From contig NZ_CP007754.1 in the NCBI RefSeq assembly GCF_000757865.1, positions 1,320,001-1,352,000 on the forward strand: a stretch of DNA of 32,000 bases, written 5' to 3'. Shown piece after piece: positions 17 through 13,244 of this stretch. The position numbers were made by a program, and so were the translations under genes. The stretch comes from Prochlorococcus sp. MIT 0801 (GTDB lineage Bacteria; Cyanobacteriota; Cyanobacteriia; PCC-6307; Cyanobiaceae). Position 1 is the first letter of the stretch; every line of letters starts with the position of its first letter. Below the pieces are notes generated by a model, which saw only the letters and a list, made by a program, of their open reading frames with translations, was not told where the DNA came from and searched no databases.

Positions 17-43
17 AGCTGCAATTAATTTGCAGCTTTTTTT
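17..43 (+). terminator. Rho-independent terminator candidate for a + strand gene lying left of the window
   Basis: Perfect 8-bp stem agctgcaa (17-24) / ttgcagct (30-37) with a 5-nt loop ttaat, running into a T-tract that ends at 43. Confidence 0.55.
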
Positions 44-135
44 GTGCGTTGAATAATAACTCATAAAAATATAGCCATACCAATGCATTAAAAGCAAAAT
101 CTTGGTTGGAGAATAAAGTTAAAGGATAGAAAGTT
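42..135. repeat. ychF-3'-end repeat, copy 1 (degenerate, core plus right arm)
   Basis: Positions 42-63 match the 22-nt ychF terminal core ctagacgttgaataaaaactcc at about 16/22. The next stretch, agccataccaatgcattaaaagcaaaatcttggttggagaataaagttaaag, aligns with the shared arm agtcatgccaatcgattacaagcaaaaatcgcggttagacttaagttagaag of copies 4 and 5. Confidence 0.5.
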
Positions 136-367
136 TTGCGAGATTGAAGCTCTCCTAAAAGTCAAATTGTCTTCGGAGAAAATCCCATTTCATTCCTTAA
201 TAAGCCAAAACCCCTGAATTTATCAAGCAAAATCATTAAGCAAAACCTGTTATTACAGTAAAAAGGCCTTTGTTTTCAGAGATGAATTATTTTCATTACA
301 AAAATTGGTTAGGAAAGCGTTTTTCCTAGCACTTCAGAGTGAGTCCATCAAATAATTTCTATACAAT

Positions 368-3626: not shown

Positions 3627-3855
3627 ATCAACCTCCAATTAGTTAATTAAATATGAATCAAGCCAGCAATTATTCAGGTAGCTAAAAATACAAAAAAGAA
3701 TTTAAATATCTCTAATTAATGATTTAAGTATATTTAAGTACAGTTCTTGCATGATCTTCCTTTATTTCCTCAAGGATCTGAAGCATTGATCGAACTAAAG
3801 GTTATGCATGTTTAGAGAGAAAATAACTAAAAAAGATTTCTAAAATAATTCGAAG

Positions 3856-3990
3856 GTTAGGATAGAATCTTATTAAGAAAGCTGAGAAACCTTGATCTAA
3901 ATATCCCACTATACGTTAAATAAAAACGCCAGCACGTCAATTGATATCAATTGCTTAAGAGCAAAAATCGCGGTTAAACGAAAGTTAGAG
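3856..3990. repeat. ychF-3'-end repeat, copy 2 (left arm, core, right arm)
   Basis: 3909-3930 ctatacgttaaataaaaacgcc matches the ychF terminal 22-mer at 19/22. The left part gttaggatagaatcttattaagaaagctgagaaaccttg parallels copy 5 gttagattagaagcttattgagaatactgagaatccttg. The right arm gcaaaaatcgcggttaaacgaaagttagag parallels copies 4 and 5. Confidence 0.75.
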
Positions 3991-4033
3991 CAATTCAAAG
4001 AGACATAATTGAGAAGATATATCCATGATTAAT

Positions 4034-4192
4034 TCACTCAAAGAATTCTTTACTCATCTCTAGGCTAAAAACACAAATCAGAATATCATGCAGTCGAGCT
4101 ACATTTTTTGCAAAATTCAGAACGACAAAAGTTTTCCACATTGCTGGTCTTCCTGCAACAATAATTAAGTCACTTCTTTTGTGGACCTTAGC
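4034..4192 (-). pseudogene. DnaB-like replicative helicase fragment (decayed)
   Basis: A 52-codon open stretch bounded by stops translates to [52 protein letters not shown]. This carries the DnaB-family Walker A block (consensus ARPxMGKT, here with Gly replaced by Trp), the ALNIAxNVA-like helix and the FSLEMS motif. The upstream sequence to about 4250 has only vague similarity, broken by stops and a frameshift. The fragment is far too short for a functional helicase. Confidence 0.7.
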
Positions 4193-7247: not shown

Positions 7248-7446
7248 ATCAAGTTACGAATAATCTATTAAAACCTAATTATGTGAATTTTATACCTGGT
7301 CCAATGTGATTTGGTTGTGTATGACAATAAATAAAGACTTAAAGTCTCTAATAGCTCCTTAACTATCCATACTCTTATAGATTAGTTAAAAGATAGCCAG
7401 AGCTAAGAAAAATACTAAATAAACATCTATATAGAACATTAAATGA

Positions 7447-7556
7447 TTGATATGACAAGCTTTTTATACGTTGAATAGGAACCCAATACAGACTAGTAAT
7501 ACCAATAGATTTTAAGCAAAATTCAGTGTTAGACCTGTACAACAAAATGTTAGACC
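7447..7556. repeat. ychF-3'-end repeat, copy 3 (degenerate)
   Basis: ttgatatgacaagctttttatacg aligns with ttggtatgactaactttctagacg (19/24). 7464-7485 matches the ychF 22-mer at about 16/22. The arm ccaatagattttaagcaaaattcagtgttagacc parallels ccaatcgattacaagcaaaaatcgcggttagac. GTTAGAC occurs at 7528-7534 and 7549-7555. Confidence 0.65.
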
Positions 7557-7634
7557 ATTTTTGAGACATGCAAGAACGTATAGATCTTCTCTTAACGCGA
7601 GAGACAAAAGTATTTTGTTTAGAAAATTCTTTCC

Positions 7635-9506: not shown

Positions 9507-9681
9507 TTAGAAATAAAAATTCATTATAGATTAGTTATCGAAATTTTGTGTTTGGTTATCATTTAGCGTTATTTCCTAATCAAAAAATTGTTTTAAGCAA
9601 AACATTAGGCAAAGCTGATCTTATCGAAGCTGGACTCTTAAAACCAGTCAGTCTCAAAACCCAAGGTTTCCTTCTCAAATA

Positions 9682-9835
9682 GTTAGACTAGACATTAGTC
9701 TAACTCGTGAAAACTGTTGGTATCACTAACTTTCTAGACGTTGAGCAAAAACTCCATCACGTCCAGTCATGCCAATCGATTACAAGCAAAAATCGCGGTT
9801 AGACTTAAGTTAGAAGAGAAGAATGAAGTTAGAAC
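9682..9835. repeat. ychF-3'-end repeat, copy 4 (full unit)
   Basis: 9734-9755 ctagacgttgagcaaaaactcc matches the ychF 22-mer at 20/22, and similarity continues to about 31 nt (ccatcacgtc versus ccataacgtc). The flank cgtgaaaactgttggtatcactaactttctag matches 12125-12156 at 26/32. The right arm has GTTAGA at 9798, 9809 and 9828. Confidence 0.85.
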
Positions 9836-9877
9836 AAATTCAGCTCTAATATCATGGACAATCATAAAAGCACATAA

Positions 9878-10588: not shown

Positions 10589-10697
10589 AATCTACTAACA
10601 AGTAATTTTTTATAACTTGAAAAAACTATTTTGTAATCTTGAGAGGTCAAAGTCCTGACAAAACTAAACCATTTGGAAGCAGCATATTAATACAAAC

Positions 10698-10852
10698 GTT
10701 AGATTAGAAGCTTATTGAGAATACTGAGAATCCTTGGTATGAATGAATTTCTAGACGTTGAATAAAAACTCCTTAGCATCCAGTGATGCCAATTGATTAC
10801 AAGTAAAAATCACGGTTAGACGTAAGTTAGAAGAGTAGAACGAAGTTAGAAC
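10698..10852. repeat. ychF-3'-end repeat, copy 5 (full unit, best preserved)
   Basis: 10751-10772 is identical (22/22) to 12153-12174, the ychF stop codon plus its last codons. 10724-10753 matches 12126-12155 at 26/30. The right arm has GTTAGA at 10815, 10826 and 10845. Confidence 0.9.
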
Positions 10853-10940
10853 GCAGCTACTAGGTCTCAATTCGGCGGAGATGGATGTTTTGATCTAGTT
10901 TTCTAAATAAACTATAAAAAACATAAGTTTATTGAGCCTT

Positions 10941-12074: not shown

Positions 12075-12100
12075 CTAATAGAAAAGTATAGACTGCAAAA

Positions 12101-12183
12101 GCTAGAATAGCACCTCTTCTAACCCCTGAGAACCCTTGGTATGACTAACTTTCTAGACGTTGAATAAAAACTCCATAACGTCT
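12101..12183. repeat. ychF-3'-end repeat, copy 6: the genuine ychF terminus plus downstream flank (attR-like junction)
   Basis: Carries the left arm and core shared with copies 4 and 5 (ctgagaacccttggtatgactaactttctagacgttgaataaaaactccataacgtc). It then continues into real ychF coding sequence instead of the shared right arm. Confidence 0.85.
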
Positions 12184-13244
12184 CCTTCATTAACTACATA
12201 TTCTTTACCCTCACTTCTTAGCCACCCTTTATTTCGAGCTTCTACTAAAGATCCTGCTTCAAGTAGTTTTTTGTATGAGATTGTTTGAGCTCGAATAAAT
12301 CCCTTTTCAAAATCTGTATGTATTACCCCAGCTGCTTGAGGAGCTGTCATCCCATCAGAAATAGTCCAAGCTTTAGTTTCTTTTTCTCCAGTGGTGAAAT
12401 AAGTGCTTAAACCCAACAATCGATATGTAGCCTTAATAAGGCTGATTAAGCCTCCTTCTTCAACTCCCAAACCATTAAGGTAATCATCTCTTTCCTCCTC
12501 CCCCAATTCAATTAACTCAGCCTCAACTTGCGCTGAAATCTTCACACATTCAGAGCCTTCTTTCGTTGCCAGTGTATTTACTTCTTCTGAATAGGAATTA
12601 CCATTCGCAAGTTCATCTTCCCCAAGGTTAGTTGCATAAATAATTGGTTTTTCAGTTAATAAGCCTAATGGTTTAATTAATTTTTTTTCTTCATCAGTTA
12701 ATGAAACAGTCCTAACTGCGTTTTCATTCTCAAGTGCCTCGGTTAATTGTTCCAACACATCATCTTCTAACTTTGCTTCCTTATTAGTACTTATTTGTTT
12801 TTTTAAGCGAGCTCTACGTTTTTCTATCTGATTTAAATCAGATAACGCTAATTCTAAGTTTATTATCTCAATATCTCTTGATGGGTCTACTGATCCAGAA
12901 ACATGGATAACATCATCATCACTAAAGCACCTAATCACATGAACTATTGCATCCACCTCCCTTATATTTGCTAAAAATTTGTTACCCAGTCCCTCCCCTT
13001 TACTTGCTCCCTTAACAAGACCAGCAATATCAACAAACTCCATTCTCGTTGGAATAATTTGCTTACTATTACTAAGTTCTCCAAGCAAATTCAAGCGTTG
13101 ATCAGGTACAGAAACAGAGCCTACATTGGGTTCAATCGTACAAAAAGGAAAGTTGGCTGCTTGAGCTTGAGCATTCGCAACAAGAGCATTGAACAAAGTG
13201 GACTTTCCAACATTAGGGAGTCCAACAATTCCGGCCTTAAGCAT
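12153..13244 (-). CDS. ychF: Ribosome-binding ATPase YchF (Obg-family P-loop NTPase)
   Basis: 363 aa. N-terminal [22 protein letters not shown]1 motif, [11 protein letters not shown]3 motif, coiled-coil insert and C-terminal TGS-like domain. ATG start. Confidence 0.95.

Follow-up and report, generated by a model that had tools for sequence, protein, structure and literature searches.

The attP sites of heterobivalent tyrosine integrases (lambda, L5, HP1 and Tn916/CTnDOT type) consist of a short core between long arms, and the arms carry several direct copies of a second word that is unrelated to the core and recurs about once per helical turn. Such sites measure about 170–250 bp in total, their outermost arm sites define the functional unit, and the 3' end of the host gene is duplicated, so that the gene is intact after insertion. 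Their core has inverted core-type sites around an overlap region of 6–8 bp, and the cognate integrase, with its arm-binding N-terminal domain, is normally encoded next to the site. Integrons (IntI, attI, attC) are chromosomal stacks of small cassettes, recombinase-less and poor in promoters, with a conserved recombination site at the end of each; their cargo is very diverse, and the same cassettes rank differently from strain to strain. They have an adjacent intI and attI, and their attC sites are imperfect palindromes that fold as single strands. In SCC-type composite islands, recombinase-less modules are stacked where a housekeeping gene ends. How island genes move in Prochlorococcus is a long-standing question, because its flexible gene pool is huge and its recognisable mobile elements are few. 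Tycheposons, found in the same organisms, are islands of 10–20 kb that target seven tRNA/tmRNA genes and carry their own integrase and replication genes; their serial integration at one site leaves partial copies of the target gene, and the core gene integrase is grouped with their tyrosine recombinases (Hackl et al., bioRxiv 10.1101/2020.12.28.424599). That study makes no mention of ychF, and a literature search returned no paper linking ychF to a Prochlorococcus island.

The window analysed here is a stretch of 32,000 nt (bases 1,320,001–1,352,000) from a closed genome of 1.93 Mb with ~33–35% G+C. The genome is that of a low-light (LLI-type) Prochlorococcus, and its YchF is 95% identical to the YchF of a Prochlorococcus single-cell genome. 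Between psbA, immediately left of the window, and ychF lies a cassette array with six direct repeat copies, every one intergenic (Table 1). The core shared by the copies, CTAGACGTTGAATAAAAACTCCATAACGTC, corresponds in reverse complement to the final nine codons and the stop of ychF. Copies 2–5 have arms on both sides of this core, copy 6 is the genuine ychF end, in which a left arm and the core continue into ychF, and in copy 1 the psbA terminator hairpin stands in for the left arm. This B-O-P' ... P-O-P' ... P-O-B' order is the pattern expected of repeated site-specific insertion into one target. From their sequence we read the repeats as att-like junctions, a ~170-bp recombination-site-like unit that separates swappable gene cassettes behind ychF in Prochlorococcus and some Synechococcus. 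Scans of the window for tRNAs and for Rfam families gave no match. The psbA side of the array also has five tandem pcb (chlorophyll-binding antenna) genes, which lie between 14.4 and 7.6 kb before the first base of the window (about 1,305,600–1,312,400 in the genome). Outside the array, the sole further copy in the genome is a decayed core with right arm at 1.10 Mb. It occupies 1,100,376–1,100,471 (L254 8343–8479, minus strand), between two type IV pilin genes of a separate pilin cluster. Pilins are also frequent as ychF-array cassettes in metagenomic contigs, with three in a row in one of them (L350).

Each described system resembles the ychF array in part. As in attP, a short core duplicates the end of the host gene, and arm words lie on both sides of it, two on the left (plus one inverted) and two to four on the right. 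Unlike attP elements, the units travel without an integrase or excisionase gene, none adjoins a cognate integrase with an arm-binding N-terminal domain, they carry one to three cargo genes and are stacked two to nine deep, and the candidate enzyme is the product of a distant chromosomal core gene. The partial target-gene copies recall tycheposons; however, the target is a protein gene rather than a tRNA or tmRNA gene, and the units, of 0.9–3.7 kb, lack the hallmark genes, with no recombinase of their own and, among the cassettes annotated, no replication hallmarks. The stack of small recombinase-less cassettes is shared with integrons, but the array has neither an adjacent IntI gene with attI nor a folding attC. 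It is anchored inside a housekeeping gene, its junction is a core with direct-repeat arms instead of a palindrome, and its cassette genes point both ways. In contrast to the short, simple sites of SCC-type and large-serine-recombinase arrays, the arms are long and carry phased repeats, and several genomes with a ychF array have no serine recombinase. The present analysis adds how the arm sites are built and conserved, how arms are linked to cassettes, that the unit extends to other genera in which the word differs, and a candidate enzyme.

Table 1. Parts of the six repeat copies, in window positions (position 1 is the first base of the window).
Feature	Position	Strand	Sequence features
Copy 1, far-end junction (B-O-P')	25–150	+	psbA terminator hairpin 16–44 instead of left arm
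Copy 1 core	42–71		Decayed
Copy 1 right arm			Decayed words GTTGGAG, GTTAAAG, GATAGAA
Copy 2	3850–4010	+	Core 3909–3938
Copy 2 arm sites			Degenerate: GTTAGGA 3856, GTTAAAC 3973, GTTAGAG 3984
Copy 3	7415–7583	+	Core 7464–7493
Copy 3 right arm, B-type			GTTAGAC 7528 and 7549, 21 nt apart
Copy 4	9678–9849
Copy 4 left (P) arm	9678–9733	+	GTTAGAC 9682–9688 facing GTCTAAC 9698–9704, then conserved TTGGTAT block
Copy 4 core	9734–9763	+	Copy of ychF end (nine codons and stop, reverse complement); likely crossover inside GA(A/G)TAAAAACT
Copy 4 core-to-right-arm spacer	9764–9797	+	Weak CGATT/AATCG hairpin 9777–9795
Copy 4 right (P') arm, A-type	9798–9835	+	GTTAGAC 9798–9804, GTTAGAA 9809–9815, GTTAGAAC 9828–9835; degenerate GAAGAAT 9818
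Copy 5	10693–10871
Copy 5 left arm	10693–10750	+	GTTAGAT 10698, ATTAGAA 10703, GAGAAT twice; no inverted pair
Copy 5 core	10751–10780	+	22/22 bases identical to ychF end
Copy 5 right arm, A-type	10815–10852	+	GTTAGAC 10815, GTTAGAA 10826, GTAGAAC 10835–10841, GTTAGAAC 10845
Copy 6	12097–12182
Copy 6 left arm, directly downstream of ychF	12097–12152	+	GCTAGAA 12101 pairs with TTCTAAC 12117–12123
ychF	12153–13244	-	Last 30 nt (12153–12182) = genuine core, P-O-B' junction; no right arm after

An initial annotation of the window had pointed out phased GTTAGA words in the repeat arms and likened them to arm-type sites of a recombinase or accessory factor. The motif observation is real and far from chance. 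The window contains 29 GTTAGA versus 17.2 ± 4.0 in shuffled sequences, and 29 was reached by none of 100 shuffles. The word occurs 0.50 times per kb in the whole genome, 0.58 times in intergenic-like DNA and 13.1 times in the six repeats, which are thus ~22 times denser than the remainder of the 1.93-Mb genome; the annotation's expectation that the word would be rare in unrelated DNA was borne out. Same-strand triplets within 60 nt exist only twice in the 1.93 Mb, as the right arms of copies 4 and 5. In a set of 59 copies (21 genomes), exact GTTAGA was present 2.2 times per 60-nt right arm versus 0.022 after shuffling, and 0.92 versus 0.019 times in left arms. Six other same-strand pairs in the genome fall mostly within ORFs and none is repeat-like; these were read as chance. 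The absence of motif clusters elsewhere in the genome argues against a transcription-factor regulon. Direct read-out of the sequence placed the sites of copies 3, 4 and 5 where the annotation had them, and all of its coordinates were correct except in copy 2. This copy had been credited with two GTTAGA sites, but position 3973 reads GTTAAAC and position 3984 reads GTTAGAG, so only degenerate sites remain.

The repeat family was detected in 30 of 41 other genomes of the genus, clustered at a single locus each time. In each of the 20 loci that we fetched, one copy is truncated and abuts ychF, several are complete, and one lies at the far end. We counted site offsets from the core start in 59 full copies from 21 genomes and in 43 metagenomic copies. 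Right-arm sites were found at +60 (window 59 to 61) in 50 of the 59 copies and 33 of the 43 metagenomic ones, at +71 (70 to 72) in 25 and 22, at +81 (80 to 82) in 27 and 13, and at +90/91 (89 to 92) in 25 and 28 (27 of them exactly at +90/91), and left-arm sites at -69/-68 in 21 (26 metagenomic, at -69 to -67), at -56/-57 in 25 (26 metagenomic, at -57 to -55) and, inverted, at -39 in 13 (13 metagenomic, at -39 and -38), counts that overstate independence because copies of one subtype are close kin, the independent observations being four or five arm subtypes and about ten genera. Distances between neighbouring sites were 11 nt (35 cases), 21 (23), 8 (13), 10 (8) and 19–20 (11). The right arms fall into subtypes whose spacers are unrelated, yet all have sites near 0, 11 or 21–22, and 30–32: subtype A reads GGTTAGAC-GTAA-GTTAGAA-GA-GTAGAAC-GAA-GTTAGAAC, subtype B GGTTAGAC-N14-GTTAGAC..., subtype C GGTTAGAC-N14-GTTAGAC-AAA-GTTAGAC, and subtype D GTTAGAC-N15-GTTAGAAC-AA-GTTAGAAC. 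In an unbiased count of 6-mers beyond the first site, GTTAGA ranked top in 16 of 19 non-redundant arms. The information content of 54 stacked copies rose above the 0.15-bit baseline only from -72 to +98, which makes the outermost motif copies the edges of the conserved unit.

The unit is also found outside the genus. With a search model built on sequence only and spanning the core to the first arm site, we detected full-length copies beside ychF in nine or more further genera of this family. Prochlorococcus-sized genomes of other genera have GGTTAGAC in the corresponding position and then another two to four copies of the word; one such example has four copies with spacings of 12, 9 and 11. 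Together with the 20 other genomes of the genus and the metagenomes, these copies retain the positions and helical-turn spacings while the spacers differ, as the initial annotation would have it. Five 2.4-Mb Synechococcus-like genomes have (A/C)GTAGAC instead, in two or three exact 11-nt tandem units (AGTAGACTTTT), and their left arm has two GTAGAC besides an inverted GTAGAC/GTCTAC pair. Co-evolution with a binding protein predicts just this, an architecture that stays while the word in it changes. Behind ychF, repeats are absent from two Prochlorococcus-labelled loci, presumed to be of high-light type, and from one Synechococcus locus, and in three g19 genomes (1.6–1.7 Mb, presumed high-light type) GTTAGAM pairs were not above control. 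Neither the core nor the A-type arm was found in IMG/VR viral contigs. The 81 IMG/VR matches to GGTTAGAC-N14-GTTAGAC were dismissed as chance, as nhmmer finds no repeat in them.

The same cassettes occur at different ranks in different genomes, and their orientation relative to the repeat is constant. Recurrent ones include a transglutaminase/alpha-E/ATP-grasp triad, a phosphoesterase-phosphoesterase-P-loop triad, a ribbon-helix-helix-like protein of ~189 aa and a small nuclease. For the two cassettes with the best sampling, the repeat to the left of the cassette has a constant right arm and a varying left arm, and the repeat to the right shows the converse, a constant left arm and a varying right arm. 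Pairwise identity was 0.741 versus 0.692 for right arms and 0.669 versus 0.646 for left arms, small shifts whose significance was not assessed; arm identities in the crossed control showed no difference. Each arm thus travels with its adjoining cassette, which makes the mobile unit a half-core, right arm, cargo, left arm and half-core, and places the exchange at the core. In one relative (MIT 0916; L144 1827–4135) a lone TPR-gene cassette sits at a second chromosomal site, with core and right arm at one edge and left arm and core at the other. The junctions there have only GA(A/G)TAAAAACT in common, narrowing the crossover to ~11 nt. A difference from attP is that core-type inverted repeats, GACGTT-N15-AACGTC, are clear in the ychF copy only; in internal copies the right half varies, and pairs are kept in 64% of cells. 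Homologous recombination between repeats could help to shuffle the cassettes.

To look for the enzyme, we surveyed recombinase genes. Neither tyrosine nor serine recombinase genes were found in or beside ~40 arrays or in 32 metagenomic contigs; no PF00589 gene was found beside arrays, the nearest matches being far away. Two complete genomes with arrays (G001 and G002) encode only one PF00589 protein and no PF00239 protein. This sole tyrosine recombinase is a family-wide "core integrase", the core gene integrase of the tycheposon study; its gene is located between cobO and hemH, and 139 of the 151 family genomes sampled have it. In the window's own genome it is encoded at 555,645–556,802 (L140 1438–2598, minus strand), about 770 kb from the site. 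In an alignment of 24 orthologues, the N-terminal domain of 85 residues is conserved and the linker after it varies, with the core-binding and catalytic domains following. AlphaFold models give the N-terminal domain as a helix, three strands and a helix (pLDDT 94) and the linker as disordered, and the remainder matches Xer, IntI, Tn1549 and lambda integrases. As modelled, this domain layout is that of arm-binding integrases. The N-terminal domain had no significant match among PDB folds, known arm-binding domains included (best E-value 0.1), and no Pfam match; PDB sequence matches were confined to the catalytic domain. The protein also occurs in array-free genomes and is for this reason a candidate, not a finding; as high-light-type genomes without a ychF array have it too, it must have another or an additional role. 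The window's genome has a second tyrosine recombinase, of 405 aa, at 1,194,748–1,196,726 (L141 838–2816), followed by a 254-aa protein that consists only of the adenylation domain of an NAD-dependent DNA ligase. The two are probably part of a tycheposon-like element.

We consider it reasonably probable that the GTTAGA(C/A) heptamers are arm-type recognition elements of a ~170-bp attP-like site, which would bound each cassette of a recombinase-less array in the 3' end of ychF. They would most likely serve as docking places for a recombinase or helper protein encoded elsewhere in the genome. From left to right, the proposed unit would comprise an arm with two direct sites, joined in some copies by an inverted one; a core mimicking the last nine ychF codons, followed by a spacer of 40 nt; and a second arm on which direct sites, two to four of them, recur at intervals of whole helical turns. 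A trans-acting protein would bind the phased sites on one face of the DNA and bend the arms onto the core. The likeliest binder would be a heterobivalent tyrosine recombinase, possibly with a DNA-bending helper, and the best single candidate would be the picocyanobacterial core integrase, with its conserved extra N-terminal domain on a flexible linker. It is possible, though we hold this part only tentatively and with some doubt, that the ychF locus is an integron-like but differently built cassette platform, in which small recombinase-less circles, each with a complex attP-like site and its GTTAGAC arm sites, are captured, excised and reshuffled through the extra N-terminal domain of the core integrase.

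The phased sites could instead bind a protein other than a recombinase, such as an architectural factor of the excisionase or IHF kind, or one that represses or silences cassettes or their junctions, with recombination needing the core alone. In favour of such a binder, response regulators, ribbon-helix-helix repressors and excisionases also typically recognise direct repeats at a distance of one helical turn. A candidate would be the ~189-aa protein, a recurrent cassette in at least 10 arrays, whose N-terminus reads like a ribbon-helix-helix motif; it belongs to a family of ~189–216 aa (L124 5744–6394 and relatives). Paralogues exist in nearly all genomes of the genus (1,317,772–1,318,152 and 1,606,911–1,607,279 in the window's own), one of them beside psbA next to the array in most genomes and a third elsewhere. 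However, no GTTAGA lies near the paralogue genes, the ~189-aa protein has no Pfam match and its array version is absent from the window's own array, and the motif clusters are restricted to att-like units, whose edges they mark; we regard a non-recombinase binder as unlikely. It is improbable that a large serine recombinase needing only a short core built the array, with arms and GTTAGA words as passengers (terminators, promoters or cassette ends). Genomes of the genus do encode two full-length large serine recombinases (631 and 523 aa), but serine recombinases do not track the arrays: PF00239 is absent from the complete array-bearing genomes G001–G004 and from all arrays, and the window's own genome has only a pseudogene, at 85 kb. 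Sites of serine recombinases are short and without arm repeats, whereas the conserved stretch here measures 170 bp and has phased repeats to either side of the core.

That the words are functionless by-products, slippage duplications of an AT-rich word inherited within one repeat family, would agree with the near-identity of many copies of one subtype and with the decayed, presumably unused sites of far-end copies and of copy 2. Positions and spacings are nevertheless kept across subtypes with unrelated spacers and across genera, even where the word itself has changed, and conservation stops exactly at the outermost sites, which leaves this explanation very improbable. Least probable of all, to our mind, is that the repeat acts as a transcribed RNA, a small RNA or a terminator or attenuator with GTTAGA words as structural parts. 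The left-arm inverted pair of copy 4 folds into a 10-bp stem (minus strand), and that of copy 6 forms a hairpin followed by UUUU on the ychF (minus) strand. Copy 5 has an 8-bp hairpin in its spacer (10773–10792, minus strand) and then a T-run supplied by the ychF-derived core, terminator-like for leftward transcripts; only some copies have such a hairpin. Against an RNA stand the lack of an Rfam match, right arms that fold no better than shuffles (z-scores +0.6 and +1.3), and the restriction of hairpins to a minority of copies. The short hairpin that the initial annotation had proposed between core and arm, with one compensatory change, does contain CGATT/AATCG and TGATT/AATCA (9777–9795 and 10794–10812), and the helix is 78.5% paired over 55 copies, but its covariation is not above controls, the score being reached by 82 of 500 shuffles and the count of double changes by 32 of 500; RNAalifold returned no consensus pairs from the core to the first site. 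The left arm does carry the word in both orientations and a perfect inverted pair in copy 4, as also claimed, but the pair is missing from copies 2, 3 and 5 and from about three quarters of all copies. Because of the hairpin and UUUU of copy 6, a transcription terminator explains it at least as well; more likely it is a terminator built from two sites in one left-arm subtype. In some copies the hairpin of the left-arm pair would probably also end transcription of ychF or of a cassette. Arm-type protein-binding sites fit better than neutral relics, a transcription-factor regulon or an RNA: rarity elsewhere, fixed offsets, a place at the unit edges and confinement to att-like repeats all speak for that part of the initial annotation.

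If the arm-site reading is right, a conserved complex site around every cassette would point to site-specific machinery acting in trans on very small cargo, even in genomes where the core integrase is the only recombinase. An orphan, family-wide integrase gene becomes a testable candidate, for which the exact DNA substrates are provided: the 170-bp unit, the seven-base sites and the 11-nt crossover window. If the platform reading holds, the core integrase, universal in picocyanobacteria, would run an integron-like platform in low-light Prochlorococcus and some marine Synechococcus.

Pilins, surface proteins, glycosyltransferases and peptide-modification operons are among the cargo, and these are traits linked to pressure from grazers and phages. 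Replication genes were found neither in the window's cassettes nor in the annotated recurrent families. A DnaB-like fragment of 51 residues (window 4037–4192, minus strand) directly adjoins the right arm of copy 2. The reading that it is a relic of a replicative element was ruled out, since it is 80% identical to the host DnaB (genome position 1,866,572), and this identity indicates that cassettes can carry captured pieces of chromosomal genes. Adjacent repeats without cargo also occur, at L129 6834–7100 and in L122, L134, L120 and L132. In the L129 example, the GTTAGAC that comes first in the right arm is joined directly to a left arm, at the GTTAGAC of the latter, as if the cargo had been deleted between the motifs.
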